Below, one piece after another: positions 20,259-50,463 of a stretch of 64,000 nucleotides of DNA. The stretch lies in assembly GCA_964016885.1 (NCBI GenBank), contig OZ024740.1:415152001-415216000 (forward strand), written 5' to 3'. Each line of letters opens with the position of its first letter. Within the stretch, counting starts at the first letter, position 1. The translations under genes and the position numbers were made by a program. This stretch comes from Eledone cirrhosa (lineage: Eukaryota). Under the pieces are notes generated by a model that was not told where the DNA came from, did not search any database, and saw only the letters and a list, made by a program, of their open reading frames with translations.

Positions 20259-20735
20259 ATGCAGTCTTAGAATCCTCTAAAAAGATGGAGTGATCATGAT
20301 TAGAACACCGTTGGTCATAAATATGCTCGGTCAGGATTAACCTGGAGCTAGACTACAATAATTTAGCACTAAATACCTATAGAATATTCAATCTTGCAAA
20401 ACTGCTGTAGTTTTGATCATTCGACCTGCTAGAAATAGCAGCTGAATTTGCTTCGAATGACACGTTGTCTTAGAATGACAGATGACATGTGTATCTAGGA
20501 TCCCAGTGCCTTTTATCAGAGTCGACGTGAAGCTAAAGGTCAACAACAAAAATTACTCGACCACTCTGTGATGCGCTGAGCTGATGTGTTGAGACTGCAA
20601 ACCTTTTGGTTGGGCGTTTAGTGACTGTTAGGGTAGTCAATTCTGTTAGTTGTCATATATTGGATATTTTGTTAGTTAAAAATAACTAGTCTTTGTTAGT
20701 TAAAAATAACTAGTCTTTCCAACGAGCGCCTACAG

Positions 20736-20775: not shown

Positions 20776-21461
20776 GTCGATTTAATCGACTTTCGCCTCC
20801 CCTTCAAATTGCTGGCCTTGTGCCATTAGATTTAGATTGCAGTGAATTGGTTGTATCTGTAGAGCGTCGGACAAGATTATTTGCGGTACTTAGTTACGAA
20901 TTCCTACATTCTGTGTTCAAATTCTGCTGATGTCACCATTGCCTTTCATCCTCCTGGGGTCGATAAAATAAAGTACCAGTAAAATACAGGATCGATGTAG
21001 TCGACTTCCCTATCCCCTAAATTGCTAGCTTTGTGCCTAAATCAGAAATCATTATTAGTGGGATTGGTAGATTGGCAGTATCGGTAGAGAGTCGGACGCC
21101 ATGCTTTCTAGCATAGTTACGTCTCTTTACGGTCTGAGTTCAAATCCCGCCGAGGTTAACTTTGCTTTTCATCCTTACTGGGTCGATGAAATAAAGTACC
21201 AGTAATGCACTAGGGTAATTGCTTGCCTTGTGCCAAAAGTAGAAACAATTATTAGTGGATTGGCAGTATCGATAGAGCGTTGGGTAAAATGCGTTGTGGC
21301 ATCGAGTCGCAACCCTTTACGTTCTGAGTTCAAATCCCGCCGAGGTTAGTTTTGCCTTTCTTCCTTACGGTGTCGATAAAATAAGTACCAGTAATGCACT
21401 GGATCGATATAGTCCTATCCCCTAAATTACTAGCTTTGTGTCTCAATCAGAAACCATTATT
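20770..21461 (+). mobile_element. Cluster of head-to-tail tRNA SINEs (a 3' fragment plus three copies)
   Basis: Repeated TGGCAGTATCG..AGAG / GTTCAAATCCCGCCGAGG / GCCTTTCATCC..GGGTCGATAAAATAAAGTACCAG / AGAAA(C/T)CA(A)TTATT modules. Confidence 0.85.
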
Positions 21462-21696
21462 AAAACAATTAATTACTATAAGATAGATCGCCGGAAATAA
21501 ATTATAAGCTAAAGGTTTACCTTTCTATTTTACTCCAACACTACACCAGAATAGAAGTTGTAAACTCTTTATCGATCGTTTCAGGGTTAATGTTTAATAC
21601 TTAATTCCTCATGTCACCTTTATATTTCCTCTGTGTTGTAGAAACTTGTGTTGGGAAAATATATCTTAACTTTTCATCTTGGTTATTGTTGTAGAC

Positions 21697-24600
21697 CAGT
21701 GGTTCTCAACCCATTTTGCCAATGACACACCTTGGAACACATGAAAAAATAGCGGCACACCTGGCTAAATATATATGAAAAATATTTGAATTTTACAAAA
21801 TAAAAACATGGCAAGTCATAGACGGCATACAACCGTAGACACAAACTAGTCATAGACGCCATACAACCGTAGACACAAACTAGTCATAGACGCCATACAA
21901 CCGTAGACACAAACTAGTCATAGACGCCATACAACCGTAGACACAAACTAGTCATAGACGCCATACAACCGTAGACACAAACTAGTCATAGACGCCATAC
22001 AACCGTAGACACAAACTAGTCATAGACGGCATACAACCGTAGACACAAACTAGTCATAGACGCCATACAACCGTAGACACAGACTAGTCATAGACGCCAT
22101 ACAACTGTTGACACAGACTAGTCATAGACGCCATACAACCGTAGACACAAACTAGTCATAGACGGCATACAACTGTAGACACAGACTAGTCATAGACGCC
22201 ATACAACTGTAGACACAGACTAGTCATAGACGGCATACAACTGTAGACACAGACTAGACATAGACGCCATACAACCGTAGACACAGACTAGGCATAGACG
22301 GCATACAACCGTAGACACAAACTAGTCATAGACGCCATACAACTGTAGACACAGACTAGTCATAGACGGCATACAACTGTAGACACAGACTAGTCATAGA
22401 CGCCATACAACCGTAGACACAAACTAGTCATAGACGCCATACAACTGTAGACACAGACTAGTCATAGACGCCATACAACCGTAGACACAAACTAGTCATA
22501 GACGGCATACAACCGTAGACACAAACTAGTCATAGACGGCATACAACTGTAGACACAGACTAGTCATAGACGCCATACAACCGTAGACACAGACTAGTCA
22601 TAGACGCCATACAACCGTAGACACAAACTAGTCATAGACGCCATACAACTGTAGACACAGACTAGTCATAGACGCCATACAACCGTAGACACAGACTAGT
22701 CATAGACGCCATACAACTGTAGACACAGACTAGTCATAGACGGCATACAACTGTAGACACAGACTAGTCATAGACGCCATACAACTGTAGACACAAACTA
22801 GTCATAGACGGCATGCAACTGTAGACACAGACTAGTCATAGACGCCATACAACCGTAGACACAAACTAGTCATAGACGGCATGCAACTGTAGACACAGAC
22901 TAGTCATAGACGCCATACAACTGTAGACACAGACTAGTCATAGACGGCATACAACTGTAGACACAGACTAATCATAGACGCCATACAACCGTAGACACAG
23001 ACTAGTCATAGACGCCATACAACTGTAGACACAGACTAGTCATAGACGCCATACAACCGTAGACACAAACTAGTCATAGACGCCATACAACCGTAGACAC
23101 AGACTAGTCATAGACGCCATACAACTGTAGACACAGACTAGTCATAGACGCCATACAACCGTAGACAGAAACTAGTCATAGACGGCATACAACTGTAGAC
23201 ACAAACTAGTCATAGACGCCATACAACCGTAGACACAGACTAGTCATAGACGCCATACAACTGTAGACACAGACTAGTCATAGACGCCATACAACCGTAG
23301 ACATAGACTAGTCATAGACGGCATACAACTGTAGACACAAACTAGTCATAGACGGCATACAACTGTAGACACAAACTAGTCATAGACGGCATACAACTGT
23401 AGACACAGACTAGTCATAGACGCCATACAACTGTAGACACAGACTAGTCATAGACGCCATACAACTGTAGACACAAACTAGTCATAGACGGCATACAACT
23501 GTAGACACAAACTAGTCATAGACGGCATACAACTGTAGACACAGACTAGTCATAGACGGCATACAACCGTAGACACAAACTAGTCATAGACGCCATACAA
23601 CCGTAGACACAAACTAGTCATAGACGCCATACAACCGTAGACACAAACTAGTCATAGACGCCATACAACCGTAGACACAAACTAGTCATAGACGCCATAC
23701 AACCGTAGACACAAACTAGTCATAGACGCCATACAGCCGTAGACACAAACTAGTCATAGACGCCATACAACCGTAGACACAAACTAGTCATAGACGGCAT
23801 ACAACCGTAGACACAAACTAGTCATAGACGCCATACAACCGTAGACACAGATTAGTCATAGACGCCATACAACTGTAGACACAGACTAGTCATAGACGCC
23901 ATACAACCGTAGACACAAACTAGTCATAGACGGCATACAACTGTAGACACAGACTAGTCATAGACGCCATACAACTGTAGACACAGACTAGTCATAGACG
24001 GCATACAACTGTAGACACAGACTAGTCATAGACGCCATACAACCGTAGACACAGACTAGTCATAGACGCCATACAACCGTAGACACAAACTAGTCATAGA
24101 CGCCATACAACTGTAGACACAGACTAGTCATAGACGCCATACAACTGTAGACACAGACTAGTCATAGACGGCATACAACTGTAGACACAGACTAGTCATA
24201 GACGCCATACAACCGTAGACACAAACTAGTCATAGACGCCATACAACTGTAGACACAGACTAGTCATAAACGCCATACAACCGTAGACACAAACTAGTCA
24301 TAGACGGCATACAACTGTAGACACAGACTAGTCATAAACGCCATACAACTGTAGACACAGACTAGTCATAGACGGCATACAACTGTAGACACAGACTAGT
24401 CATAGACGCCATACAACCGTAGACACAAACTAGTCATAGACGCCATACAACTGTAGACACAGACTAGTCATAGACGCCATACAACCGTAGACACAAACTA
24501 GTCATAGACGGCATACAACTGTAGACACAAACTAGTCATAGACGCCATACAACCGTAGACACAAACTAGTCATAGACGGCATACAACTGTAGACACAGAC

Positions 24601-27600
24601 TAGTCATAGACGGCATACAACCGTAGACACAGACTAGTCATAGACGCCATACAACCGTAGACACAGACTAGTCATAGACGGCATACAACCGTAGAAACAG
24701 ACTAGTCATAGACGCCATACAACCGTAGACACAGACTAGTCATAGACGCCATACAACCGTAGACACAGACTAGTCATAGACGCCATACAACTGTAGACAC
24801 AGACTAGTCATAGATGCCATACAACCGTAGACACAGACTAGTCATAGACGCCATACAACCGTAGACACAAACTAGTCATAGACGCCATACAACCGTAGAC
24901 ACAGACTAGTCATAGACGCCATACAACTGTAGACACAGACTAGTCATAGACGCCATACAACCGCAGACACAAACTAGTCATAGACGCCATACAGCTGTAG
25001 ACACAGACTAGTCATAGACGGCATACAACAGTAGACACAAACTAGTCATAGACGGCATACAACCGTAGACACAGACTAGTCATAGACGCCATACAACCGT
25101 AGACACAGACTAGTCATAGACGGCATACAACTGTAGACACAGACTAGTCATAGACGGCATACAACCGTAGACACAGACTAGTCATAGACGGCATACAACT
25201 GTAGACACAGACTAGACATAGACGGCATACAACCGTAGAAACAGACTAGTCATAGACGCCATACAACCGTAGACACAAACTAGTCATAGACGCCATACAA
25301 CTGTAGACACAAACTAGTCATAGACGCCATATAACTGTAGACACAGACTAGTCATAGACGGCATACAACTGTAGACACAAACTAGTCATAGACGGCATAC
25401 AACTGTAGACACAGACTAGTCATAGACGGCATACAACTGTAGACACAGACTAGACATAGACGGCATACAACTGTAGACACAGACTAGTCATAGACGCCAT
25501 ACAACTGTAGACACAGACTAGTTATAGACGCCATACAACTGCAGACACAGACTAGTCATAGACGGCATACAACTGTAGTCACAGACTAGTCATAGACGGC
25601 ATACAACTGTAGACACAGACTAGTCATAGACGCCATACAACTGTAGACATAGACTAGTCATAGACGCCATACAACTGTAGACACAGACTAGTCATAGACG
25701 GCATACAACTGTAGACACAGACTAGTCATAGACGCCATACAACTGTAGACACAGACTAGTCATAGACGCCATAGAATTGTAGACACAGACTAGTCATAGA
25801 CGGCATACAACCGTAGACACAGACTAGTCATAGACGGCATACAACTGTAGACACAGACTAGTCATAGACGCCATACAACTGTAGACACAGACTAGTCATA
25901 GACGCCATACAACTGTAGACACAGACTAGTCATAGACGGCATACAACTGTAGACACAGACTAGTCATAGACGGCATACAACCGTAGACACAGACTAGTCA
26001 TAGACGCCATACAACTGTAGACACAGACTAGTCATAGACGGCATGCAACCGTAGACACAAACTAGTCATAGACGGCATACAACCGTAGACACAAACTAGT
26101 CATAGACGGCATACAACTGTAGACACAGACTAGTCATAGACGGCATACAACCGTAGACACAAACTAGTCATAGACGCCATACAACCGTAGACACAAACTA
26201 GTCATAGACGGCATACAACTGTAGACACAGACTAGTCATAGACGGCATACAACCGTAGACACAAACTAGTCATAGACGCCATACAACCGTAGACACAAAC
26301 TAGTCATAGACGGCATACAACTGTAGACACAGACTAGTCATAGACGCCATAAAACCGTAGACACAAACTAGTCATAGACGCCATACAACCGTAGACACAG
26401 ACTAGTCATAGACGCCATACAACCGTAGACACAAACTAGTCATAGACGGCATACAACTGTAGACACAGACTAGTCATAGACGCCATACAACTGTAGACAC
26501 AGACTAGTCATAGACGGCATACAACTGTAGACACAGACTAATCATAGACGCCATACAACCGTAGACACAGACTAGTCATAGACGCCATACAACTGTAGAC
26601 ACAGACTAGTCATAGACGCCATACAACCGTAGACACAAACTAGTCATAGACGCCATACAACCGTAGACACAGACTAGTCATAGACGCCATACAACTGTAG
26701 ACACAGACTAGTCATAGACGCCATACAACCGTAGACATAGACTAGTCATAGACGGCATACAACTGTAGACACAAACTAGTCATAGACGGCATACAACTGT
26801 AGACACAAACTAGTCATAGACGGCATACAACTGTAGACACAGACTATTCATAGACGCCATACAACTGTAGACACAGACTAGTCATAGACGCCATACAACT
26901 GTAGACACAAACTAGTCATAGACGGCATACAACTGTAGACACAAACTAGTCATAGACGGCATACAACCGTAGACACAGACTAGTCATAGACGCCATAACA
27001 ACCGTAGACACAGACTAGTCATAGACGCCATACAACTGTAGACACAAACTAGTCATAGACGCCATACAACCGTAGACACAAACTAGTCATAGACGGCATA
27101 CAACTGTAGACACAGACTAGTCATAGACGGCATACAACCGTAGACACAGACTAGTCATAGACGCCATACAACCGTAGACACAGACTAGTCATAGACGCCA
27201 TACAACCGTAGACACAGACTAGTCATAGACGCCATACAACTGTAGACACAGACTAGTCATAGACGCCATACAACCGTAGACACAGACTAGTCATAGACGC
27301 CATACAACCGTAGACACAAACTAGTCATAGACGCCATACAACCGTAGACACAGACTAGTCATAGACGCCATACAACTGTACACACAGACTAGTCATAGAC
27401 GCCATACAACCGTAGACACAAACTAGTCATAGACGCCATACAACTGTAGACACAGACTAGTCATAGACGGCATACAACCGTAGACACAAACTAGTCATAG
27501 ACGGCATACAACCGTAGACACAGACTAGTCATAGACGCCATACAACCGTAGACACAAACTAGTCATAGACGCCATACAACTGTAGACACAAACTAGTCAT

Positions 27601-30600
27601 AGACGCCATACAACTGTAGACACAGACTAGTCATAGACGGCATACAACTGTAGACACAAACTAGTCATAGACAGCATACAACTGTAGACACAAACTAGTC
27701 ATAGACGCCATACAACCGTAGACACAGACTAGTCATAGACGGCATACAACCGTAGACACAGACTAGTCATAGACGCCATACAACTGTAGACACAGACTAG
27801 TCATAGACGGCATACAACCGTAGACACAAACTAGTCATAGACGGCATACAACCGTAGACACAAACTAGTCATAGACGGCATACAACTGTAGACACAGACT
27901 AGTCATAGACGGCATACAACCGTAGACACAAACTAGTCATAGACGCCATACAACCGTAGACACAAACTAGTCATAGACGCCATACAACCGTAGACACAAA
28001 CTAGTCATAGACGCCATACAACCGTAGACACAAACTAGTCATAGACGCCATACAACCGTAGACACAAACTAGTCATAGACGCCATACAACCGTAGACACA
28101 AACTAGTCATAGACGCCATACAACCGTAGACACAAACTAGTCATAGACGGCATACAACCGTAGACACAAACTAGTCATAGACGCCATACAACCGTAGACA
28201 CAGACTAGTCATAGACGCCATACAACTGTAGACACAGACTAGTCATAGACGCCATACAACCGTAGACACAAACTAGTCATAGACGGCATACAACTGTAGA
28301 CACAGACTAGTCATAGACGCCATACAACTGTAGACACAGACTAGTCATAGACGGCATACAACTGTAGACACAGGCTAGTCATAGACGCCATACAACCGTA
28401 GACACAGACTAGTCATAGACGCCATACAACCGTAGACACAAACTAGTCATAGACGCCACACAACTGTAGACACAGACTAGTCATAGACGCCATACAACTG
28501 TAGACACAGACTAGTCATAGACGGCATACAACTGTAGACACAGACTAGTCATAGACGCCATACAACCGTAGACACAAACTAGTCATAGACGCCATACAAC
28601 TGTAGACACAGACTAGTCATAGACGCCATACAACCGTAGACACAAACTAGTCATAGACGGCATACAACTGTAGACACAGACTAATCATAGACGCCATACA
28701 ACTGTAGACACAGACTAGTCATAGACGGCATACAACTGTAGACACAGACTAGTCATAGACGCCATACAACCGTAGACACAAACTAGTCATAGACGCCATA
28801 CAACTGTAGACACAGACTAGTCATAGACGCCATACAACCGTAGACACAAACTAGTCATAGACGGCATACAACTGTAGACACAAACTAGTCATAGACGCCA
28901 TACAACCGTAGACACAAACTAGTCATAGACGGCATACAACTGTAGACGCAGACTAGTCATAGACGGCATACAACCGTAGACACAGACTAGTCATAGACGC
29001 CATACAACCGTAGACACAGACTAGTCATAGACGGCATACAACCGTAGACACAGACTAGTCATAGACGCCATACAACCGTAGACACAGACTAGTCATAGAC
29101 GCCATACAACCGTAGACACAGACTAGTCATAGACGCCATACAACTGTAGACACAGACTAGTCATAGATGCCATACAACCGTAGACACAGACTAGTCATAG
29201 ACGCCATACAACCGTAGACACAAACTAGTCATAGACGCCATACAACCGTAGACACAGACTAGTCATAGACGCCATACAACTGTAGACACAGACTAGTCAT
29301 AGACGCCATACAACCGTAGACACAAACTAGTCATAGACGCCATACAGCTGTAGACACAGACTAGTCATAGACGGCATACAACCGTAGACACAAACTAGTC
29401 ATAGACGGCATACAACCGTAGACACAGACTAGTCATAGACGCCATACAACCGTAGACACAGACTAGTCATAGACGGCATACAACTGTAGACACAGACTAG
29501 TCATAGACGGCATACAACCGTAGACACAGACTAGTCATAGACGGCATACAACTGTAGACACAGACTAGTCATAGACGCCATACAACTGTAGACACAGACT
29601 AGTCATAGACGCCATACAACTGTAGACACAGACTAGTCATAGACGGCATACAACTGTAGACACAGACTAGTCATAGACGGCATACAACCGTAGACACAGA
29701 CTAGTCATAGACGCCATACAACTGTAGACACAGACTAGTCATAGACGGCATACAACCGTAGACACAAACTAGTCATAGACGGCATACAACCGTAGACACA
29801 AACTAGTCATAGACGGCATACAACTGTAGACACAGACTAGTCATAGACGGCATACAACCGTAGACACAAACTAGTCATAGACGCCATACAACCGTAGACA
29901 CAAACTAGTCATAGACGCCATACAACCGTAGACACAAACTAGTCATAGACGCTATACAACCGTAGACACAAACTAGTCATAGACGCCATACAACCGTAGA
30001 CACAAACTAGTCATAGACGCCATACAGCTGTAGACACAAACTAGTCATAGACGCCATGCAACCGTAGACACAAACTAGTCATAGACGCCATACAACCGTA
30101 GACACAAACTAGTCATAGACGCCATACAACCGTAGACACAAACTAGTCATAGACGCCATACAACCGTAGACACAAACTAGTCATAGACGCCATACAACCG
30201 TAGACACAAACTAGTCATAGACGCCATACAACCGTAGACACAAACTAGTCATAGACGCCATACAACCTTAGACACAAACTAGTCATAGACGGCATACAAC
30301 TGTAGACACAGACTAGTCATAGACGCCATACAACTGTAGACACAGACTAGTCATAGACGGCATACAACTGTAGACACAGACTAGTCATAGACGGCATACA
30401 ACTGTAGACACAGACTAGTCATAGACGCCATACAACTGTAGACACAGACTAGTCATAGACGCCATACAACTGTAGACACAGACTAGTCATAGACGCCATA
30501 CAACTGTAGACACAGACTAGTCATAGACGGCATACAACTGTAGACACAGACTAGTCATAGACGCCATACAACTGTAGACACAGACTAGTCATAGACGCCA

Positions 30601-33600
30601 TACAACTGTAGACACAGACTAGTCATAGACGGCATACAACAGTAGACACAGACTAGTCATAGACGGCATACAACTGTAGACACAGACTAGTCATAGACGC
30701 CATACAACTGTAGACACAGACTAATCATAGACGCCATACAACTGTAGACACAGACTAGTCATAGACGGCATACAACTGTAGACACAGACTAGTCATAGAG
30801 GGCATACAACCGAAGACACAGACTAGTCATAGACGCCACACAACTGTAGACACAGACTAGTCATAGACGCCATACAACTGTAGACACAGACTAGTCATAG
30901 ACGGCATACAACTGTAGACACAGACTAGTCATAGACGCCATACAACCGTAGACACAAACTAGTCATAGACGCCATACAACTGTACACACAGACTAGTCAT
31001 AGACGCCATACAACCGTAGACACAAACTAGTCATAGACGCCATACAACCGTAGACACAAACTAGTCATAGACGCCACACAACTGTAGACACAGACTAGTC
31101 ATAGACGCCATACAACTGTAGACACAGACTAGTCATAGACGGCATACAACTGTAGACACAGACTAGTCATAGACGCCATACAACCGTAGACACAAACTAG
31201 TCATAGACGCCATACAACTGTAGACACAGACTAGTCATAGACGGCATACAACCGTAGACACAGACTAGTCATAGACGCCATACAACCGTAGACACAGACT
31301 AGTCATAGACGCCATACAACCGTAGACACAGACTAGTCATAGACGCCATACAACTGTAGACACAGACTAGTCATAGATGCCATACAACCGTAGACACAGA
31401 CTAGTCATAGACGCCATACAACCGTAGACACAAACTAGTCATAGACGCCATACAACCGTAGACACAGACTAGTCATAGACGCCATACAACTGTAGACACA
31501 GACTAGTCATAGACGCCATACAACCGTAGACACAAACTAGTCATAGACGCCATACAGCTGTAGACACAGACTAGTCATAGACGGCATACAACCGTAGACA
31601 CAAACTAGTCATAGACGGCATACAACCGTAGACACAGACTAGTCATAGACGCCATACAACCGTAGACACAGACTAGTCATAGACGGCATACAACTGTAGA
31701 CACAGACTAGTCATAGACGGCATACAACCGTAGACACAGACTAGTCATAGACGGCATACAACTGTAGACACAGACTAGTCATAGACGCCATACAACTGTA
31801 GACACAGACTAGTCATAGACGCCATACAACTGTAGACACAGACTAGTCATAGACGGCATACAACTGTAGACACAGACTAGTCATAGACGGCATACAACCG
31901 TAGACACAGACTAGTCATAGACGCCATACAACTGTAGACACAGACTAGTCATAGACGGCATACAACCGTAGACACAAACTAGTCATAGACGGCATACAAC
32001 CGTAGACACAAACTAGTCATAGACGGCATACAACTGTAGACACAGACTAGTCATAGACGGCATACAACCGTAGACACAAACTAGTCATAGACGCCATACA
32101 ACCGTAGACACAAACTAGTCATAGACGCCATACAACCGTAGACACAAACTAGTCATAGACGCTATACAACCGTAGACACAAACTAGTCATAGACGCCATA
32201 CAACCGTAGACACAAACTAGTCATAGACGCCATACAGCTGTAGACACAAACTAGTCATAGACGCCATGCAACCGTAGACACAAACTAGTCATAGACGCCA
32301 TACAACCGTAGACACAAACTAGTCATAGACGCCATACAACCGTAGACACAAACTAGTCATAGACGCCATACAACCGTAGACACAAACTAGTCATAGACGC
32401 CATACAACCGTAGACACAAACTAGTCATAGACGCCATACAACCGTAGACACAAACTAGTCATAGACGCCATACAACCTTAGACACAAACTAGTCATAGAC
32501 GGCATACAACTGTAGACACAGACTAGTCATAGACGCCATACAACTGTAGACACAGACTAGTCATAGACGGCATACAACTGTAGACACAGACTAGTCATAG
32601 ACGGCATACAACTGTAGACACAGACTAGTCATAGACGCCATACAACTGTAGACACAGACTAGTCATAGACGCCATACAACTGTAGACACAGACTAGTCAT
32701 AGACGCCATACAACTGTAGACACAGACTAGTCATAGACGGCATACAACTGTAGACACAGACTAGTCATAGACGCCATACAACTGTAGACACAGACTAGTC
32801 ATAGACGCCATACAACTGTAGACACAGACTAGTCATAGACGGCATACAACAGTAGACACAGACTAGTCATAGACGGCATACAACTGTAGACACAGACTAG
32901 TCATAGACGCCATACAACTGTAGACACAGACTAATCATAGACGCCATACAACTGTAGACACAGACTAGTCATAGACGGCATACAACTGTAGACACAGACT
33001 AGTCATAGAGGGCATACAACCGAAGACACAGACTAGTCATAGACGCCATACAACTGTAGACACAGACTAGTCATAGACGGCATACAACCGTAGACACAAA
33101 CTAGTCATAGACGGCATACAACCGTAGACACAAACTAGTCATAGACGGCATACAACTGTAGACACAGACTAGTCATAGACGGCATACAACCGTAGACACA
33201 AACTAGTCATAGACGCCATACAACCGTAGACACAAACTAGTCATAGACGCCATACAGCTGTAGACACAGACTAGTCATAGACGGCATACAACCGTAGACA
33301 CAAACTAGTCATAGACGGCATACAACCGTAGACACAGACTAGTCATAGACGGCATACAACTGTAGACACAGACTAGTCATAGACGCCATACAACTGTAGA
33401 CACAGACTAGTCATAGACGGCATACAACTGTAGACACAGACTAGTCATAGACGCCATACAACCGTAGACACAGACTAGTCATAGACGCCATACAACCGTA
33501 GACACAAACTAGTCATAGACGCCACACAACTGTAGACACAGACTAGTCATAGACGCCATACAACTGTAGACACAGACTAGTCATAGACGGCATACAACTG

Positions 33601-36600
33601 TAGACACAGACTAGTCATAGACGCCATACAACCGTAGACACAAACTAGTCATAGACGCCATACAACTGTAGACACAGACTAGTCATAGACGCCATACAAC
33701 CGTAGACACAAACTAGTCATAGACGGCATACAACTGTAGACACAGACTAGTCATAGACGCCATACAAGTGTAGACACAGACTAGTCATAGACGGCATACA
33801 ACTGTAGACACAGACTAGTCATAGACGCCATACAACCGTAGACACAAACTAGTCATAGACGCCATACAACTGTAGACACAGACTAGTCATAGACGCCATA
33901 CAACCGTAGACACAAACTAGTCATAGACGGCATACAACTGTAGACACAAACTAGTCATAGACGCCATACAACCGTAGACACAAACTAGTCATAGACGCCA
34001 TACAACTGTAGACGCAGACTAGTCATAGACGGCATACAACCGTAGACACAGACTAGTCATAGACGCCATACAACCGTAGACACAGACTAGTCATAGACGG
34101 CATACAACCGTATACACAGACTAGTCATAGACGCCATACAACCGTAGACACAGACTAGTCATAGACGCCATACAACCGTAGACACAGACTAGTCATAGAC
34201 GCCATACAACTGTAGACACAGACTAGTCATAGATGCCATACAACCGTAGACACAGACTAGTCATAGACGCCATACAACCGTAGACACAAACTAGTCATAG
34301 ACGCCATACAACCGTAGACACAGACTAGTCATAGACGCCATACAACTGTAGACACAGACTAGTCATAGACGCCATACAACCGTAGACACAAACTAGTCAT
34401 AGACGCCATACAGCTGTAGACACAGACTAGTCATAGACGGCATACAACCGTAGACACAAACTAGTCATAGACGGCATACAACCGTAGACACAGACTAGTC
34501 ATAGACGCCATACAACCGTAGACACAGACTAGTCATAGACGGCATACAACTGTAGACACAGACTAGTCATAGACGGCATACAACCGTAGACACAGACTAG
34601 TCATAGACGGCATACAACTGTAGACACAGACTAGTCATAGACGCCATACAACTGTAGACACAGACTAGTCATAGACGCCATACAACTGTAGACACAGACT
34701 AGTCATAGACGGCATACAACTGTAGACACAGACTAGTCATAGACGGCATACAACCGTAGACACAGACTAGTCATAGACGCCATACAACTGTAGACACAGA
34801 CTAGTCATAGACGGCATACAACTGTAGACACAAACTAGTCATAGACGGCATACAACCGTAGACACAAACTAGTCATAGACGGCATACAACTGTAGACACA
34901 GACTAGTCATAGACGGCATACAACCGTAGACACAAACTAGTCATAGACGCCATACAACCGTAGACACAAACTAGTCATAGACGCCATACAACCGTAGACA
35001 CAAACTAGTCATAGACGCCATACAACCGTAGACACAAACTAGTCATAGACGCCATACAACCGTAGACACAAACTAGTCATAGACGCCATACAGCTGTAGA
35101 CACAAACTAGTCATAGACGCCATGCAACCGTAGACACAAACTAGTCATAGACGCCATACAACCGTAGACACAAACTAGTCATAGACGCCATACAACCGTA
35201 GACACAAACTAGTCATAGACGCCATACAACCGTAGACACAAACTAGTCATAGACGCCATACAACCGTAGACACAAACTAGTCATAGACGCCATACAACCG
35301 TAGACACAAACTAGTCATAGACGCCATACAACCTTAGACACAAACTAGTCATAGACGGCATACAACTGTAGACACAGACTAGTCATAGACGCCATACAAC
35401 TGTAGACACAGACTAGTCATAGACGGCATACAACTGTAGACACAGACTAGTCATAGACGGCATACAACTGTAGACACAGACTAGTCATAGACGCCATACA
35501 ACTGTAGACACAGACTAGTCATAGACGCCATACAACTGTAGACACAGACTAGTCATAGACGCCATACAACTGTAGACACAGACTAGTCATAGACGGCATA
35601 CAACTGTAGACACAGACTAGTCATAGACGCCATACAACTGTAGACACAGACTAGTCATAGACGCCATACAACTGTAGACACAGACTAGTCATAGACGGCA
35701 TACAACAGTAGACACAGACTAGTCATAGACGGCATACAACTGTAGACACAGACTAGTCATAGACGCCATACAACTGTAGACACAGACTAATCATAGACGC
35801 CATACAACTGTAGACACAGACTAGTCATAGACGGCATACAACTGTAGACACAGACTAGTCATAGAGGGCATACAACCGAAGACACAGACTAGTCATAGAC
35901 GCCATACAACTGTAGACACAGACTAGTCATAGACGGCATACAACCGTAGACACAAACTAGTCATAGACGGCATACAACCGTAGACACAAACTAGTCATAG
36001 ACGGCATACAACTGTAGACACAGACTAGTCATAGACGGCATACAACCGTAGACACAAACTAGTCATAGACGCCATACAACCGTAGACACAAACTAGTCAT
36101 AGACGCCATACAGCTGTAGACACAGACTAGTCATAGACGGCATACAACCGTAGACACAAACTAGTCATAGACGGCATACAACCGTAGACACAGACTAGTC
36201 ATAGACGGCATACAACTGTAGACACAGACTAGTCATAGACGCCATACAACTGTAGACACAGACTAGTCATAGACGGCATACAACTGTAGACACAGACTAG
36301 TCATAGACGCCATACAACCGTAGACACAGACTAGTCATAGACGCCATACAACCGTAGACACAAACTAGTCATAGACGCCACAAAACTGTAGACACAGACT
36401 AGTCATAGACGCCATACAACTGTAGACACAGACTAGTCATAGACGGCATACAACTGTAGACACAGACTAGTCATAGACGCCATACAACCGTAGACACAAA
36501 CTAGTCATAGACGCCATACAACTGTAGACACAGACTAGTCATAGACGCCATACAACCGTAGACACAAACTAGTCATAGACGGCATACAACTGTAGACACA

Positions 36601-39600
36601 GACTAGTCATAGACGCCATACAAGTGTAGACACAGACTAGTCATAGACGGCATACAACTGTAGACACAGACTAGTCATAGACGCCATACAACCGTAGACA
36701 CAAACTAGTCATAGACGCCATACAACTGTAGACACAGACTAGTCATAGACGCCATACAACCGTAGACACAAACTAGTCATAGACGGCATACAACTGTAGA
36801 CACAAACTAGTCATAGACGCCATACAACCGTAGACACAAACTAGTCATAGACGCCATACAACTGTAGACGCAGACTAGTCATAGACGGCATACAACCGTA
36901 GACACAGACTAGTCATAGACGCCATACAACCGTAGACACAGACTAGTCATAGACGGCATACAACCGTATACACAGACTAGTCATAGACGCCATACAACCG
37001 TAGACACAGACTAGTCATAGACGCCATACAACCGTAGACACAGACTAGTCATAGACGCCATACAACTGTAGACACAGACTAGTCATAGATGCCATACAAC
37101 CGTAGACACAGACTAGTCATAGACGCCATACAACCGTAGACACAAACTAGTCATAGACGCCATACAACCATAGACACAGACTAGTCATAGACGCCATACA
37201 ACTGTAGACACAGACTAGTCATAGACGCCATACAACCGTAGACACAAACTAGTCATAGACGCCATACAGCTGTAGACACAGACTAGTCATAGACGGCATA
37301 CAACCGTAGACACAAACTAGTCATAGACGGCATACAACCGTAGACACAGACTAGTCATAGACGCCATACAACCGTAGACACAGACTAGTCATAGACGGCA
37401 TACAACTGTAGACACAGACTAGTCATAGACGGCATACAACCGTAGACACAGACTAGTCATAGACGGCATACAACTGTAGACACAGACTAGTCATAGACGC
37501 CATACAACTGTAGACACAGACTAGTCATAGACGCCATACAACTGTAGACACAGACTAGTCATAGACGGCATACAACTGTAGACACAGACTAGTCATAGAC
37601 GGCATACAACCGTAGACACAGACTAGTCATAGACGCCATACAACTGTAGACACAGACTAGTCATAGACGGCATACAACCGTAGACACAAACTAGTCATAG
37701 ACGGCATACAACTGTAGACACAGACTAGTCATAGACGGCATACAACCGTAGACACAAACTAGTCATAGACGCCATACAACCGTAGACACAAACTAGTCAT
37801 AGACGCCATACAACCGTAGACACAAACTAGTCATAGACGCCATACAACCGTAGACACAAACTAGTCATAGACGCCATACAACCGTAGACACAAACTAGTC
37901 ATAGACGCCATACAGCTGTAGACACAAACTAGTCATAGACGCCATGCAACCGTAGACACAAACTAGTCATAGACGCCATACAACCGTAGACACAAACTAG
38001 TCATAGACGCCATACAACCGTAGACACAAACTAGTCATAGACGCCATACAACCGTAGACACAAACTAGTCATAGACGCCATACAACCGTAGACACAAACT
38101 AGTCATAGACGCCATACAACCGTAGACACAAACTAGTCATAGACGCCATACAACCTTAGACACAAACTAGTCATAGACGGCATACAACTGTAGACACAGA
38201 CTAGTCATAGACGCCATACAACTGTAGACACAGACTAGTCATAGACGGCATACAACTGTAGACACAGACTAGTCATAGACGGCATACAACTGTAGACACA
38301 GACTAGTCATAGACGCCATACAACTGTAGACACAGACTAGTCATAGACGCCATACAACTGTAGACACAGACTAGTCATAGACGCCATACAACTGTAGACA
38401 CAGACTAGTCATAGACGGCATACAACTGTAGACACAGACTAGTCATAGACGCCATACAACTGTAGACACAGACTAGTCATAGACGCCATACAACTGTAGA
38501 CACAGACTAGTCATAGACGGCATACAACAGTAGACACAGACTAGTCATAGACGGCATACAACTGTAGACACAGACTAGTCATAGACGCCATACAACTGTA
38601 GACACAGACTAATCATAGACGCCATACAACTGTAGACACAGACTAGTCATAGACGGCATACAACTGTAGACACAGACTAGTCATAGAGGGCATACAACCG
38701 AAGACACAGACTAGTCATAGACGCCATACGACTGTAGACACAGACTAGTCATAGACGGCATACAACCGTAGACACAAACTAGTCATAGACGGCATACAAC
38801 CGTAGACACAAACTAGTCATAGACGGCATACAACTGTAGACACAGACTAGTCATAGACGGCATACAACCGTAGACACAAACTAGTCATAGACGCCATACA
38901 ACCGTAGACACAAACTAGTCATAGACGCCATACAGCTGTAGACACAGACTAGTCATAGACGGCATACAACCGTAGACACAAACTAGTCATAGACGGCATA
39001 CAACCGTAGACACAAACTAGTCATAGACGGCATACAACCGTAGACACAGACTAGTTATAGACGCCATACAACCGTAGACACAGACTAGTCATAGACGGCA
39101 TACAACTGTAGACACAGACTAGTCATAGACGGCATACAACCGTAGACACAGACTAGTCATAGACGGCATACAACTGTAGACACAGACTAGACATAGACGG
39201 CATACAACCGTAGAAACAGACTAGTCATAGACGCCATACAACCGTAGACACAAACTAGTCATAGACGCCATACAACTGTAGACACAAACTAGTCATAGAC
39301 GCCATATAACTGTAGACACAGACTAGTCATAGACGGCATACAACTATAGACACAAACTAGTCATAGACGGCATACAACTGTAGACACAGACTAGACATAG
39401 ACGGCATACAACTGTAGACACAGACTAGTCATAGACGGCATACAACTGTAGACACAGACTAGTCATAGACGCCATACAACTGTAGACACAGACTAGTCAT
39501 AGACGCCATACAACTGTAGACACAGACTAGTCATAGACGCCATACAACTGTAGACACAGACTAGTCATAGACGGCATACAACTGTAGACACAGACTAGTC

Positions 39601-42600
39601 ATAGACGCCATACAACTGTAGACACAGACTAGTCATAGACGCCATACAACTGTAGACACAGACTAGTCATAGACGGCATACAACTGTAGACACAGACTAG
39701 TCATAGACGCCATACAACTGTAGACACAGACTAGTCATAGACGGCATACAACCGTAGACACAGACTAGTCATAGACGCCATACAACTGTAGAAACAGACT
39801 AGTCATAGACGGCATACAACAAAGACACAAACTAGTCATAGACGGCATACAACCGTAGACACAAACTAGTCATAGACGGCATACAACTGTAGACACAGAC
39901 TAGTCATAGACGGCATACAACCGTAGACACAAACTAGTCATAGACGCCATACAACCGTAGACACAAACTACTCATAGACGCCATACAACCGTAGACACAA
40001 ACTAGTCATAGACACCATACAACCGTAGACACAAACTAGTCATAGACGCCATACAACAGTAGACACAAACTAGTCATAGACGCCATACAGCTGTAGACAC
40101 AAACTAGTCATAGACGCCATGCAACCGTAGACACAAACTAGTCATAGACGCCATACAACCGTAGACACAAACTAGTCATAGACGCCATACAACCGTAGAC
40201 ACAAACTAGTCATACACGCCATACAACCGTAGACACAAACTAGTCATAGACGCCATACAACCGTAGACACAAACTAGTCATAGACGCCATACAACCGTAG
40301 ACACAAACTAGTCATAGACGCCATACAACCGTAGACACAAACTAGTCATAGACGGCATACAACCGTAGACACAAACTAGTCATAGACGGCATACAACTGT
40401 AGACACAGACTAGTCATTGACGCCATACAACTGTAGACACAGACTAGTCATAGACGGCATACAACTGTAGACACAGACTAGTCATAGACGGCATACAACT
40501 GTAGACACAGAGTAGTCATAGACGCCATACAACTGTACACACAGACTAGTCATAGACGCCATACAACTGTAGACACAGACTAGTCATAGACGCCATACAA
40601 CTGTAGACACAGACTAGTCATAGACGGCATACAACTGTAGACACAGACTAGTCATAGACGCCATACAACTGTAGACACAGACTAGTCATAGACGCCATAC
40701 AACTGTAGACACAGACGAGTCATAGACGGCATACAACCGTAGACACAGACTAGTCATAGACGGCATACAACTGTAGACACAGACTAGTCATAGACGCCAT
40801 GCAACTGTAGACACAGACTAGTCATAGACGCCATACAACTGTAGACACAGACTAGACATAGACGGCATACAACTGTAGACACAGACTAGTCATAGACGGC
40901 ATACAACCGTAGACACAGACTAGTCATAGACGCCATACAACTGTAGACACAGACTAGTCATAGACGGCATACAACCGTAGACACAAACTAGTCATAGACG
41001 GCATACAACCGTAGACACAAACTAGTCATAGACGGCATACAACTGTAGACACAGACTAGTCATAGACGGCATACAACCGTAGACACAAACTAGTCATAGA
41101 CGCCATACAACCGTAGACACAAACTAGTCATAGACGCCATACAACCGTAGACACAAACTAGTCATAGACGCCATACAATCGTAGACACAAACTAGTCATA
41201 GACGCCATACAGCTGTAGACACAAACTAGTCATAGACGGCATACAACTGTAGACACAGACTAGACATAGACGGCATACAACTGTAGACACAGACTAGTCA
41301 TAGACGGCATACAACTGTAGACACAGACTAGTCATAGACGCCATACAACTGTAGACACAGACTAGTCATAGACGCCATACAACTGTAGACACAGACTAGT
41401 CATAGACGCCATACAACTGTAGACACAGACTAGTCATAGACGGCATACAACTGTAGACACAGACTAGTCATAGACGCCATACAACTGTAGACACAGACTA
41501 GTCATAGACGCCATACAACTGTAGACACAGACTAGTCATAGACGGCATACAACTGTAGACACAGACTAGTCATAGACGCCATACAACCGTAGACACAGAC
41601 TAGTCATAGACGCCATACAACCGTAGACACAAACTAGTCATAGACGCCATACAACTGTAGACACAGACTAGTCATAGACGCCATACAACAGTAGACACAG
41701 ACTAGTCATAGACGGCATACAACTGTAGACACAGACTAGTCATAGCCGCCATACAACCGTAGACACAAACTAGTCATAGACGCCATACAACTCTAGACAC
41801 AGACTAGTCATAGACGCCATACAACCGTAGACACAAACTAGTCATAGACGGCATACAACTGTAGACACAGACTAGTCATAGACGCCATACAACTGTAGAC
41901 ACAGACTAGTCATAGACGGCATACAACTGTAGACACAGACTAGTCATAGACGCCATACAACCGTAGACACAAACTAGTCATAGACGCCATACAACTGTAG
42001 ACACAGACCAGTCATAGACGCCATACAACCGTAGACACAAACTAGTCATAGACGCCATACAACCGTAGACACAGACTAGTCATAGACGCCATACAACTGT
42101 AGACACAGACTAGTCATAGACGCCATAGAACCGTAGACACAAACTAGTCATAGACGGCATACAACTGTAGATACAAACTAGTCATAGACGCCATACAACC
42201 GTAGACACAGACTAGTCATAGACGCCATACAACTGTAGACACTGACTAGTCATAGACGCCATACAACCGTAGACATAGACTAGTCATAGACGGCATACAA
42301 CTGTAGACACAAACTAGTCATAGACGGCATACAACTGTAGACACAAACTAGTCATAGACGGCATACAACTGTAGACACAGACTAGTCATAGACGCCATAC
42401 AACTGTAGACACAGACTAGTCATAGACGCCATAGAACTGTAGACACAAACTAGTCATAGACGGCATACAACTGTAGACACAAACTAGTCATAGACGGCAT
42501 ACAACCGTAGACACAGACTAGTCATAGACGGCATACAACTGTAGTCACAGACTAGTCATAGACGGCATACAACTGAAGTCACAGACTAGTCATAGACGGC

Positions 42601-45600
42601 ATACAACTGTAGACACAGACTAGTCATAGACGGCATACAACCGTAGACACAGACTAGTCATAGACGCCATACAACTGTAGAAACAGACTAGTCATAGACG
42701 GAATACAACCGTAGACACAAACTAGTCATAGACGGCATACAACCGTAGACACAAACTAGTCATAGACGGCATACAACTGTAGACACAGACTAGTCATAGA
42801 CGGCATACAACCGTAGACACAAACTAGTCATAGACGCCAAACAACCGTAGACACAAACTAGTCATAGACGCCATACAACCGCAGACACAAACTAGTCATA
42901 GACGCCATACAACCGTAGACACAAACTAGTCATAGACGCCATACAACCGTAGACACAAACTAGTCATAGACGCCATACAGCTGTAGACACAAACTAGTCA
43001 TAGACGCCATGCAACCGTAGACACAAACTAGTCATAGACGCCATACAACCGTAGACACAAACTAGTCATAGACGCCATACAACCGTAGACACAAACTAGT
43101 CATAGACGCCATACAACCGTAGACACATACTAGTCATAGACGCCATACAACCGTAGACACAAACTAGTCATAGACGCCATACAACCGTAGACACAAACTA
43201 GTCATAGACGCCATACAACCGTAGACACAAACTAGTCATAGACGGCATACAACCGTAGACACAAACTAGTCATAGACGGCATACAACTGTAGACACAGAC
43301 TAGTCATTGACGCCATACAACTGTAGACACAGACTACTCATAGACGGCATACAACTGTAGACACAGACTAGTCATAGACGGCATACAACTGTAGACACAG
43401 AGTAGTCATAGACGCCATACAACTGTACACACAGACTAGTCATAGACGCCATACAACTGTAGACACAGACTAGTCATAGACGCCATACAACTGTAGACAC
43501 AGACTAGTCATAGACGGCATACAACTGTAGACACAGACTAGTCATAGACGGCATACAACTGTAGACACAGACTAGTCATAGACGCCATACAACTGTAGAC
43601 ACAGACTAGTCATAGACGCCATACAACTGTAGACACAGACTAGTCATAGACGGCATACAACTGTAGACACAGACTAGTAATAGACGCCATACAACTGTAG
43701 ACACAGACTAGTCATAGACGCCATACAACTGTAGACACAGACTAGACATAGACGGCATACAACTGTAGACACAGACTAGTCATAGACGGCATACAACCGT
43801 AGACACAGACTAGTCATAGACGCCATACAACTGTAGACACAGACTAGTCATAGACGGCATACAACCGTAGACACAAACTAGTCATAGACGGCATACAACC
43901 GTAGACACAAACTAGTCATAGACGGCATACAACTGTAGACACAGACTAGTCATAGACGGCATACAACCGTAGACACAAACTAGTCATAGACGCCATACAA
44001 CCGTAGACACAAACTAGTCATAGACGCCATACAACCGTAGACACAAACTAGTCATAGACGCCATACAACCGTAGACACAAACTAGTCATAGACGCCATAC
44101 AATCGTAGACACAAACTAGTCATAGACGCCATACAGCTGTAGACAGAAACTAGTCATAGACGCCATGCAACCGTAGACACAAACTAGTCATAGACGCCAT
44201 ACAACCGTAGACACAAACTAGTCATAGACGCCATACAACCGTAGACACAAACTAGTCATAGACGCCATACAACCGTAGACACAAACTAGTCATAGACGCC
44301 ATACAACCGTAGACACAAACTAGTCATAGACGGCATACAACTGTAGACACAAACTAGTCATAGACGCCATACAACCGTAGACACAGACTAGTCATAGACG
44401 CCATACAACTGTAGACTCAGACTAGTCATAGACGCCATAGAACCGTAGACACAAACTAGTCATAGACGGCATACAACTGTAGACACAGACTAGTCATAGA
44501 CGCCATACAACTGTAGACACAGACTAGTCATAGACGGCATACAACTGTAGACACAGACTAGTCATAGACGCCATACAACCGTAGACACAGACTAGTCATA
44601 GACGCCATACAACCGTAGACACAAACTAGTCATAGACGCCATACAACTGTAGACACAGACTAGTCATAGACGCCATACAACAGTAGACACAGACTAGTCA
44701 TAGACGGCATACAACTGTAGACACAGACTAGTCATAGCCGCCATACAACCGTAGACACAAACTAGTCATAGACGCCATACAACTGTAGACACAGACTAGT
44801 CATAGACGCCATACAACCGTAGACACAAACTAGTCATAGACGCCATACAACTGTAGACACAGACCAGTCATAGACGCCATACAACCGTAGACACAAACTA
44901 GTCATAGACGCCATACAACCGTAGACACAGACTAGTCATAGACGCCATACAACTGTAGACACAGACTAGTCATAGACGCCATACAACCGTAGACACAAAC
45001 TAGTCATAGACGGCATACAACTGTAGATACAAACTAGTCATAGACGCCATACAACCGTAGACACAGACTAGTCATAGACGCCATACAACTGTAGACACTG
45101 ACTAGTCATAGACGCCATACAACCGTAGACATAGACTAGTCATAGACGGCATACAACTGTAGACACAAACTAGTCATAGACGGCATACAACTGTAGACAC
45201 AAACTAGTCATAGACGGCATACAACTGTAGACACAGACTAGTCATAGACGCCATACAACTGTAGACACAGACTAGTCATAGACGCCATAGAACTGTAGAC
45301 ACAAACTAGTCATAGACGGCATACAACTGTAGACACAAACTAGTCATAGACGGCATACAACCGTAGACACAGACTAGTCATAGACGGCATACAACTGTAG
45401 TCACAGACTAGTCATAGACGGCATACAACTGTAGTCACAGACTCGTCATAGACGGCATACAACTGTAGACACAGACTAGTCATAGACGGCATACAACTGT
45501 AGACACAGACTAGTCATAGACGGCATACAACCGTAGACACAGACTAGTCATAGACGGCATACAACCGTAGACACAGACTAGTCATAGACGGCATACAACT

Positions 45601-47500
45601 GTAGACACAGACTAGTCATAGACGGCATACAACTGTAGACACAGACTAGTCATAGACGGCATCCAACTGTAGACACAGACTAGTCATAGACGGCATACAA
45701 CCGTAGACACAGACTAGTCATAGACGGCATACAACTGTAGACACAGACTAGTCATAGACGGCATACAACTGTAGACACAGACTAGTCATAGGCGGCATAC
45801 AACTGTAGACACAGACTAGTCATAGACGGCATACAACTATAGACACAGACTAGTCATAGACGGCATACAACCGTAGACACAGACTAGTCATAGACGGCAT
45901 ACAACTGTAGACACAGACTAGTCATAGACGGCATACAACTGTAGACACAGACTAGTCATAGACCGCATACAACCGTAGACACAGACTAGTCATAGACGGC
46001 ATACAACCGTAGACACAGACTAGTCATAGACGGCATACAACCGTAGACACAGACTAGTCATAGACGGCATACAACCGTAGACACAGACTAGTCATAGACG
46101 GCATACAACTGTAGACACAGACTAGTCATTGACGGCATACAACTGTAGACACAGACTAGTCATAGACGGCATACAACCGTAGACACAGACTAGTCATAGA
46201 CGGCATACAACTGTAGACACAGACTAGTCATAGACGGCATACAACTGTAGACACAGACTAGTCATAGACGGCATACAACCGTAGACACAGACTAGTCATA
46301 GACGGCATACAACTGTAGACACAGACTAGTCATAGACGGCATACAACTGTAGACACAGACTAGTCATAGACGGCATACAACTGTAGACACAGACTAGTCA
46401 TAGACGGCATACAACTGTAGACACAGACTAGTCATAGACGGCATACAACTGTAGACACAGACTAGTCATAGACGGCATACAACTGTAGACACAGACTAGT
46501 CATAGACGGCATACAACTGTAGACACAGACTAGTCATAGACGGCATACAACCGTAGACACAGACTAGTCATAGACGGCATACAACTGTAGACACAGACTA
46601 GTCATAGACGGCATACAACTGTAGACACAGACTAGTCATAGACGGCATACAACCGTAGACACAGACTAGTCATAGACGCCATACAACCGTAGACACAGAC
46701 TAGTCATAGACGGCATACAACCGTAGACACAGACTAGTCATAGACGCCATACAACTGTAGACACAGACTAGTCATAGACGCCATACAACCATAGACACAG
46801 ACTAGTCATAGACGCCATACAACTGTAGACACAGACTAGTCATAGACGCCATACAACCATAGACACAGACTAGTCATAGACGCCATACAACTGTAGACAC
46901 AGACTAGTCATAGACGCCATACAACCGTAGACACAGACTAGTCATAGACGCCATACAACTGTAGACACAGACTAGTCATAGACGGCATACAACTGTAGAC
47001 ACAGACTAGTCATAGACGGCATACAACCGTAGACACAGACTAGTCATAGACGGCATACAACTGTAGACACAGACTAGTCATAGACGCCATACAACCGTAG
47101 ACACAGACTAGTCATAGACGGCATACAACCGTAGACACAGACTAGTCATAGACGCCATACAACTGTAGACACAGACTAGTCATAGACGCCATACAACTGT
47201 AGACACAGACTAGTCATAGACGCCATGCAACTGTAGACACAGACTAGTCATAGACACATAGAATGACTCAAACTAAATAAAGAAAAACACTTGGAATAAA
47301 GAAAGACATTTGGAAACATTTCGCTCATCCCTAAATGAACAAAGCTATGTGGTGCGACATGTTACACCACAGACTGAATACTCAATTGGGATCACGTGGT
47401 TTTTCGCATTTTCTTAGTATGCCGTTCAAAATTTCGCGGCACACTTAGGAAGAACTCGCGCTATACCTGTGTGCTGCGGCACACTGGTTGAGAATCACTG
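21697..47500. mobile_element. Non-autonomous hAT (Charlie-type) element containing satellite B
   Basis: Left TIR CAGTGGTTCTCAACC (21697-21711) versus right TIR reverse complement CAGTGATTCTCAACC (47486-47500), 14/15 identical. Flanks TTGTAGAC (21689-21696) and TTGTAGAG (47501-47508) form an 8-bp TSD matching 7/8 with central TA. Subterminal GCGGCACAC motifs at both ends. No transposase. Confidence 0.88.
21814..47255. repeat. Satellite array B, 34-bp monomer CTAGTCATAGACG(C/G)CATACAAC(C/T)GTAGACACA(A/G)A, 748 copies plus 10 bp
   Basis: Period 34. Begins and ends in AGTCATAGAC. 25442 bp = 748x34+10, with one +1 indel near 26998 and one -1 near 39821. Confidence 0.98.
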
Positions 47501-47502
47501 TT

Positions 47503-48068
47503 GTAGAGGGTTGGACGCCATGCTCTCTAGCATAGTTACGTCCCTTTACGGTCTGAGTTCAAATCCCGCCGAGGTTAACTTTGCCTTTCATCCCTACGGA
47601 GTCGATAAAATAAAGTACCACTGGATAATTGATGGCCTTGTACCAAAAGTAGAAACAATTATTAGTGGGATTGGCAGAATCGATAGAGCGTTGGACACCA
47701 TGCTTTGCAGCATAGAGTTATTGCCCTTTATGTTCTGAGTTCAAATCCCGCCGGGGTTAGCTTTGCCTTTCATCCTTACGAGGTCGATAGAATAAAGCAC
47801 CAGTAACATACTGGGTCATTTAATCGACTTTCCCCTCCTCCCATATTACTGGTCTTGTGCCTATATAAGAATTCATTATGGTTTGGCAGTATCGGTAGAG
47901 CGTCAGACACCATGCTTCGCAGTATAGGAGTTATGGGTCTTTACGTTCTGGATTCAAATCCCACCGGGGTTAGCTTTGCCTTTCATCCCTACGGATGGTA
48001 AAATAAAGTACCAGTAATGCACTGAGATAATTGCTGGCCTTGTGCTAAAAGTGGAAACATTGTTATTA
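47503..48068 (+). mobile_element. Three head-to-tail tRNA SINEs
   Basis: Same SINE modules at ~47503-47663, 47664-47878 and 47880-48068. The first lacks its 5' ~15 nt. Confidence 0.87.
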
Positions 48069-48664: not shown

Positions 48665-48912
48665 GAAAGCTGAAGAAGCCTGTTTGATTCCTATATTAAG
48701 CTTGTCAGACAACATTGTGTGTCACTACAGATACACGATGGAAGTCTTGTCTAGGAGATAGTTTACGATAGAAATGTTGGCGGGAAGTGCATTATTATTG
48801 TGTCCAAAACAAGATTGCAGAGTAAGGGTCTGCTACTATAACTGTCAACTTGAATGGGTGGACCTTCTGTAGGCTGGGCACTTTTTGTCGAGACACTTAC
48901 ATGACCACTTTT

Positions 48913-49088
48913 AATAATTGTTTCTACTTTTGGCACAAGACCACCAATTACTCAGTGTATTACTGGTACTTTATTTTATCGACCCCGCAAGAATGAAAGG
49001 CAACGTTAACCTCGGCGGCATTCGAACTCAGAATGGCAAGGGTCGTAACTCTATGCGTCAAAGCATAGTGTCCGACGCTCTACCGATA
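48913..49088 (-). mobile_element. tRNA-derived SINE
   Basis: Close to the 19915-20085 copy (shared GAATGGCAAGGG.CGTAACTCTATGCGTCAAAGCATAG). Confidence 0.87.
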
Positions 49089-49192: not shown

Positions 49193-49903
<711 letters not shown>

Positions 49904-49997: not shown

Positions 49998-50115
49998 TTA
50001 AAATTGTTGGGTTACAACAAGTAAATATTTTATAACCGATATAAAGCACTCGACAAGTTTTTGGAGTAGATATACGATATTAAACAAATGGAAACTATAT
50101 TTATAAAACCATATT

Positions 50116-50181
50116 TATTTCATTATACATATTTCAGGGATACCATATTAAAAATATGGCATGCCTTCGTCAGATAAAATA
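50116..50181 (-). ncRNA. Type I hammerhead ribozyme motif (family A)
   Basis: Reverse complement of the 50328-50393 motif. Confidence 0.8.
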
Positions 50182-50393: not shown

Positions 50394-50434
50394 AATATGG
50401 TTTTATAAATATAGTTTCCATTTGTTTAATATCG

Positions 50435-50463
<29 letters not shown>

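Follow-up and report, generated by a model that had tools for sequence, protein, structure and literature searches.

Satellite growth inside non-autonomous DNA transposons is not a new mechanism, being known from miDNA4 of Xenopus tropicalis and from the Helitrons of the oyster Crassostrea gigas. The Xenopus 1723 element is a hAT-like precedent with target-site duplications (TSDs) of 8 bp, short terminal inverted repeats (TIRs) and an expandable internal tandem repeat; it is 6-10 kb long, has a longer repeat unit than the one described here, and occurs in many copies. Here, we analysed 64,000 nucleotides of Eledone cirrhosa (GenBank assembly GCA_964016885.1, contig OZ024740.1, positions 415,152,001 to 415,216,000 of the forward strand; hereafter the window) and found an element at 21697-47500 whose two ends enclose 748 tandem units of 34 bp. 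[quoted passage not shown] What stands out is the hAT host together with 748 units and both ends retained. The element is an unusually large and clean case of a satellite growing from a transposon.

Like this element, miDNA4 is a non-autonomous cut-and-paste element with an internal tandem array; its unit number varies, and it has been proposed to become a free satellite as its ends decay (PMC12628747, PMC9659126). However, miDNA4 belongs to Tc1/mariner and has many copies, whereas our element is a hAT known from one copy. The Helitron/Helentron satellites of C. gigas (CgiSat01 = Cg170/HindIII) also form arrays between conserved element ends, with long and short arrays coexisting, but their host is a rolling-circle element (PMC8268682). 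According to the same source, element-bound oyster arrays reach at most 89 monomers, which we calculate as about 15 kb given that 232 monomers equal 40 kb, compared with 748 units and 25.4 kb here, and arrays of more than 100 monomers have mostly lost the element ends and stand alone. Merlin elements with internal tandem repeats and the CACTA Jozin-derived CficCl-61-40 also combine TIR transposons with short-unit arrays, in superfamilies other than hAT (PMC8101967, PMC7320549). The Jozin arrays, with about 125 monomers (5 kb) as their maximum in reads, originate in transposase sequence; the part of PMC7320549 compared does not describe them as enclosed by both ends. We did not find hAT among the array hosts in the part of the PMC9659126 table compared, nor a long satellite enclosed by hAT ends in a literature search covering titles and abstract openings, with most subscription journals outside it. 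The present case would add hAT to the superfamilies hosting such arrays. It also bears on the late step of the model leading from a repeat in a transposon to a free satellite, since a very long array with both ends is seldom caught.

The closest described elements by their ends are the Busters (AnBT, SPINon, TcBuster, the non-autonomous Buster1 and Buster2, and the Mar MITE). As described, they share with our element TIRs of 15-16 bp starting with CAG, a TA-centred 8-bp TSD, a palindromic motif pair inside the 5' TIR, a 3' T-run followed by two motifs 30 bp apart, the arm lengths, and a short non-coding body. Our element differs in having its own subterminal motif, GCGGCACAC, and no transposase. 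It also differs in size, at 25.8 kb where the non-autonomous members listed span 0.25-0.9 kb, and in its internal satellite, of which there is no mention for Busters in the literature compared. PMC4298943 records non-autonomous Busters of 246-908 bp, including ones of 365, 366 and 373 bp, and states that Buster ends resemble one another over about 106 bp, that the 5' end is more conserved than the 3' end, and that families differ in their subterminal motif.

To define the element, we compared its two ends. The 15-bp TIRs at 21697-21711 (3' end of the element, at the window left) and 47486-47500 (5' end, at the window right), both assigned to the minus strand, match at 14 of 15 positions in reverse complement, with no match further inward. 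They are flanked on the plus strand by TTGTAGAC at 21689-21696 and TTGTAGAG at 47501-47508, an imperfect duplication that agrees at 7 of 8 positions and has TA at positions 4-5 of both copies. The last six bases of the right copy are the start of a copy of a ~172-bp SINE-like (short interspersed nuclear element) repeat in the right flank. The left TSD copy is probably the mutated one, at its last base, because all 9 other copies of this repeat that were examined have G there. When 1 kb on either side of the array was dinucleotide-shuffled 1000 times, an inverted repeat of at least 14/15 alone was not rare (46/1000), but one with an abutting duplication of at least 7/8 was never obtained (0/1000); relaxing the inverted repeat to at least 12/15 gave the pair in 2 of 300 shuffles. 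The ends and the duplication named in the preliminary description were thus recovered here, the latter with one mismatch.

The element has a total length of 25,804 bp, with 117 bp of unique DNA to the left of the array and 245 bp to the right. An 8-bp TSD is part of the definition of the hAT superfamily (PMC3517528), and TIRs of 15 bp lie within the hAT range of 5-27 bp. The length exceeds the hAT limit of about 4 kb, and arithmetic removal of the array leaves 372 bp without a unit (69-fold less) or 406 bp with one unit (64-fold less). The ~370 bp and the ~70-fold inflation are arithmetic figures; a short copy was not observed in the window. Excess length is the anomaly here, and does not point to another family. 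The MITE label fits a non-coding element with TIRs and a TSD; it does not fit in short uniform size, as this copy is 25.8 kb and the short form would be that of an ancestor.

Two further observations concern the ends. A lone Buster-like terminus at 20728-20775 matches the TIR at 12 of 15 positions, is preceded by a TA-centred 8-mer, and after about 35 bp passes into a SINE-like copy's tail; its partner end was not found in the window. A TIR-like site at 20736 was considered as an alternative mate for the right TIR and rejected, because the 8-mers beside the two do not agree and a partner end was not found. In the left TSD copy, the last-base change makes seven bases (21690-21696) identical to a stretch of the 34-bp unit, a likeness that is probably due to chance.

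The assignment to a family was made from the subterminal regions. The 9-bp motif GCGGCACAC has three exact copies in the 64-kb window (at 21752, 47436 and 47476), every one inside the arms, while the mean in shuffles was 0.05 and 0 of 100 shuffles reached three. The 3' subterminal region (21712-21813, minus strand) consists, in this order, of a T-run, a motif site with 3 changes at 21722-21730, an exact one 30 bp away at 21752-21760, and an AT-rich spacer. The 5' subterminal region (47436-47485, minus strand) has a near-palindrome with one mismatch just inside the TIR (47469-47484), a degenerate motif site at 47458-47466 (3 changes) and an exact motif at 47436-47444. Counted inward, motif sites begin at positions 17, 24, 35 and 57 of the right end and at 26 and 56 of the left end, giving the asymmetric subterminal repeats of hAT elements. 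Of these six sites, three match the motif exactly, one departs from it by 1 change and two by 3, among the latter the 3' site nearest the TIR; part of this divergence may be native to the family. The remaining, internal part of the 5' arm (47256-47435, minus strand) is unique and non-coding, with a two-copy 19-bp repeat at 47276-47315, and the longest stop-free stretch within the 245-bp arm is 46 codons.

The subterminal motifs reported earlier are thus present, and because both arms share one private motif, in the same orientation as the motif of AnBT, comparison of the two arms supports their belonging to one family. This answers the concern that the ends might come from different families. 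The left TIR is identical at 15 of 15 positions, by eye, to the second SPINon TIR in Table S2 of PMC12637253, where the two SPINon TIRs differ from each other at 1 of 16 positions. The Buster TSD consensus nnnTAnnn (PMC3517528) agrees with both TSD copies at this one site. Both copies carry their TA at the consensus positions. The same 8-mer also fits the Ac-type pattern nTnnnnAn, and the TSD alone does not separate the families.

Furthermore, we compared both ends with the AnBT ends in Table S3 of PMC12637253 by an ungapped hand count against this one reference element, with no profile search. The right end matched the AnBT 5' (left) end at 38 of 65 positions overall and at 27 of 49 past the TIR (positions 17-65), and the left end matched the AnBT 3' (right) end at 24 of 50 past the TIR (positions 17-66). 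Swapped pairings gave 13/49 and 18/50, with about 13 expected by chance. Binomial p values for the right and left ends were about 1e-5 and 7e-4 at 26% chance identity, and 2e-4 and 6e-3 at 30%. The order of features agrees as well. Read inward, the right end has the AnBT 5' order of TIR, motif palindrome (positions 17-32) and motif sites in register near 46 and 65, and the left end has the AnBT 3' order of TIR, T-run and a pair of motif sites spaced by 30 bp, whose ends fall at 36 and 66 in the two elements alike. The arm lengths of 245 and 117 bp are also close to the most active AnBT ends of 240 and 126 bp including the TSD (PMC12637253). Taken together, the TIR and terminal-region similarity supports, by hand comparison, a non-autonomous hAT of the Buster (Charlie-type) family, and the agreement of the right end with the AnBT 5' end and of the left end with the 3' end suggests that it lies on the minus strand. 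The hAT assignment of the preliminary description is thereby sharpened. GCGGCACAC itself had no match in the searched supplements of PMC12637253 and PMC4298943. PMC13282606 reports 21 recently active hAT families with 153 insertions in Octopus vulgaris.

The satellite array occupies 21814-47255. Tandem Repeats Finder gave a period of 34 with 748.3 copies over this interval, and our unit parse gave 748 units, of which 746 are exactly 34 bp, one is 33 bp and one 35 bp, followed by a 10-bp partial unit. Both agree with the unit count and the unique flanks described earlier. The array is head-to-tail between both element ends, as in miDNA4-type elements, and has been amplified and homogenised, as seen in its mean unit identity of 94.5%, its duplicated blocks and its eight haplotypes. 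Units differ by 1.3% outside three common variable sites (12, 21 and 31). Once 11 units of deviant base or length are set aside, all eight combinations of these sites are present among the 737 that were scored, and exchange within units is needed to produce them.

We found that the array contains large duplicated blocks. Runs of identical units occur at offsets of 65 and 83-85 units and at sums of these, and the longest such run is 53 units, compared with 4-7 in 30 shuffles. Blocks of 65-85 units cover 596 of the 748 units. In their best-aligned parts, inner blocks differ by 0-0.26% and outer blocks by 0.4-0.95%, values taken from local alignment, which favours the most similar parts and hence low values. 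Rare variants appear once per block, and because of this recurrence most of the array length is real history. The youngest blocks, situated at 29-38 kb of the window and only 0-0.3% apart, point to recent growth in place. Beside the 5' arm the variant mix is distinct, which reflects local homogenisation: in the last ~68 units (about 44900-47245), G at site 12 is found in 72% of units compared with 32-46% elsewhere, and A at site 31 in 9% compared with 29-50%. About the last 40 units fall outside the duplicated blocks.

The unit has a faint 17-bp half-period (18/34 at a shift of 17, reached by 2.9% of 5000 shuffles), no special fold was found for it (z = 0.80), and an open frame of 35 codons does not occur entirely within the array. 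A neighbouring 43-mer was rejected as kin of the 34-mer, as 1175 of 2000 shuffles scored as well. No function is indicated for the array.

We consider it likely that a short non-autonomous Buster inserted here, that an internal 34-bp segment grew in place, and that the ends meanwhile started to decay. The ancestor would have been an internally deleted, non-autonomous Buster hAT of about 0.4 kb with few units, keeping the cis-ends for a Buster transposase in their usual asymmetric 5'/3' layout on the minus strand. Transposition by cut-and-paste, driven in trans, would have placed it in a TA-centred site lying at the beginning of a SINE-like repeat or close to it, with the 8-bp duplication as the result. 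Between the arms there would have been a 34-bp segment in one or a few units, amplified at the locus after insertion. In a first phase, slippage or short unequal exchange would have reshuffled the three variable sites into eight unit types; later, repeated duplication of 2.2-2.9-kb blocks, by unequal crossing-over or template switching in repair, would have brought the array to 25.4 kb. Meanwhile the ends, freed from selection, may have gathered changes. Taken together, the two TIRs and the two TSD copies disagree at 2 of 23 positions (8.7%, 95% confidence interval 1-28%), more than the blocks do, which weakly suggests that the insertion is older than the last block duplications. The locus is most likely a now immobile and functionless satellite, caught before its transposon ends erode.

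Several observations weigh against this history. Searching the 64-kb window for the two arms and the unit gave nothing further beyond short chance matches, and no short, empty or second copy of the element was found there. Similarity between unit and arms was undetectable, with 324 of 500 and 334 of 500 shuffles scoring equally well. The age contrast is weak, and the TIR mismatch may be native, as in SPINon, which leaves 1 of 8 TSD bases. The Buster comparison is a hand count against a single element. One 1,829-bp stretch of the array is duplicated exactly; this could be real or an assembly slip, and the copy number may be off. Finally, the left flank did not continue the SINE-like repeat convincingly (p about 0.08 ungapped; 0.52 gapped, no better than background). 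Three of the 9 other SINE-like copies also lack the head upstream of the insertion point, and a 5'-truncated copy explains the flank equally well. Given the unit's unlikeness to the arms and the lack of a shorter copy in the window, the birth of the satellite inside the element, as stated in the preliminary description, is here a hypothesis.

The unlikeness of unit and arms would instead be expected if the 34-mer were a pre-existing genomic satellite, captured by or inserted into the element as several units or as a long array, for example through circular DNA or repair. Capture of this kind was proposed by Scalvenzi and Pollet for miDNA4, as summarised in PMC12628747, and the GC content of the array (44%, against 34% and 41% in the arms) also favours it. 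The 10-bp terminal partial unit is not diagnostic of capture, as any array ends in some phase. On the other hand, the junctions of the array are sharp and undegraded on both sides, stray copies of the unit were not found elsewhere in the 64-kb window, and growth in place would still be required for the young blocks. The array-free remainder is sized like ordinary non-autonomous Busters, though this is compatible with either view. We regard capture as unlikely.

It is less probable still, and in our judgement very unlikely, that the arms come from two copies joined by recombination in the array or by an assembly join, or that the length is largely an assembly artefact. Arrays of 25 kb with 94.5%-identical units are hard to assemble, the repeat in the right flank is not clearly continued on the left, and the window holds other direct and inverted duplications at 100% identity. 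But an unrelated join would give a TSD match of at least 7/8 with a probability of about 5e-4 at local composition (somewhat more given the TA preference). In addition, the block copies carry private variants and show graded divergence, and just 2 indel units occur in 748.

Tol2 can carry inserts of the size of bacterial artificial chromosomes. Present-day mobility of our element appears unlikely, however, because AnBT loses about 90% of its activity with 8.5 kb of cargo compared with 1.6 kb (PMC12637253), because hAT transposases read subterminal repeats, which in Hermes are the binding sites of the BED domain (PMC10368747), and because no transposase domain was found in the 12 scanned of the 48 window open reading frames of at least 90 amino acids. 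The element interior is without coding capacity. According to the preliminary description, both ends are intact and the array is in principle movable in trans. Although recognisable, the ends are not pristine: the pairs disagree at one TIR base and one TSD base, and 3 of the 6 motif sites deviate. With these differences, the lack of a transposase domain among the scanned reading frames and the AnBT cargo loss, movement in trans is weakened as a proposal. The idea that a Buster transposase moved the complete ~26-kb unit, or one of multi-kb size, as cargo and is spreading long arrays has in its favour both TIRs, the TSD and arms of about the length that AnBT requires, but is highly improbable in view of the AnBT cargo loss, the mostly standalone state of oyster arrays above 100 monomers, the degenerate motif sites including the 3' one nearest the TIR, and a TSD already mutated while inner blocks are near-identical.

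A Buster family with arrays from one unit to tens of kb, mobile at multi-kb size and scattering satellite blocks, is improbable; if it were true, array length against TSD age would be a natural measure of the cargo limit and of the satellite growth rate. Insertion site, ancestral boundaries and duplication history can be read at the present locus from the TSD, the arms and the variant pattern, respectively. Thus, comparing this single locus between individuals and between species could yield both the rate and the mechanism of growth.

Searches outside the window were directed at prokaryotic sequences. The strict pattern of the 5' end gave 0 loci in a prokaryotic genome collection, and the loose pattern gave 7 loci, all bacterial records, which we take as chance; blastn of these to the arms and the unit gave no match beyond the pattern, with 1 of the 7 giving a 25-bp hit over the pattern. 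In plasmids, blastn of 47200-47500 gave no match.

The window is otherwise rich in repeats, with a second satellite, long TA and CA runs, SINE-like copies and a broken LINE (long interspersed nuclear element). The second satellite, at 1-15085, has mixed units of 40 and 43 bp, is at least 15 kb long and continues past the window edge. It lies 6.6 kb from the 34-mer array, has similar strand skews, and contains an exact 2,211-bp duplicate at an offset of 4,065; no transposon end was noticed at its right edge. About ten copies of the ~172-bp repeat are located at 18184-18372, 19915-20260, 20846-21440, 47503-48060 and 48912-49087, 70-95% alike and often in tandem pairs or triples. We take this interspersed repeat to be SINE-like and presume it to be an octopus repeat, though a motif search in one supplement of PMC13282606, on O. 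vulgaris repeats, gave 0 hits; Rfam gave 0 hits and ARAGORN 0 genes.

Palindromic foldback stretches of about 400 bp lie in the TA runs at 49193-49813, 52567-53123, 58381-58645 and 50067-50442. One foldback family is found twice whole and once half, 99% alike, with a perfect centre of 47-bp arms and a variable count of 13-bp repeats. These stretches are either TA-targeting palindromic elements or foldback artefacts. Between TA runs at 55337-56846, a 466-bp unit occurs in tandem copies that are 100% identical, followed by an inverted copy with 100% identity over 438 bp, which represents either a rearrangement of very recent date or an artefact of the assembly or the library. We presume that 51390-51950 (plus strand) and 63501-63824 (minus strand) are Penelope-like remnants; GIY-YIG matches the former weakly, with an E of 0.0045 that falls short of the Pfam cut-off, and no domain match was found for the latter. 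The LINE at 59883-63005 (plus strand) has endonuclease, reverse transcriptase and PHD-finger domains in three frames. Its best protein relative is 56% identical among at least 120 matches listed, and the Elysia chlorotica match is 53% identical.

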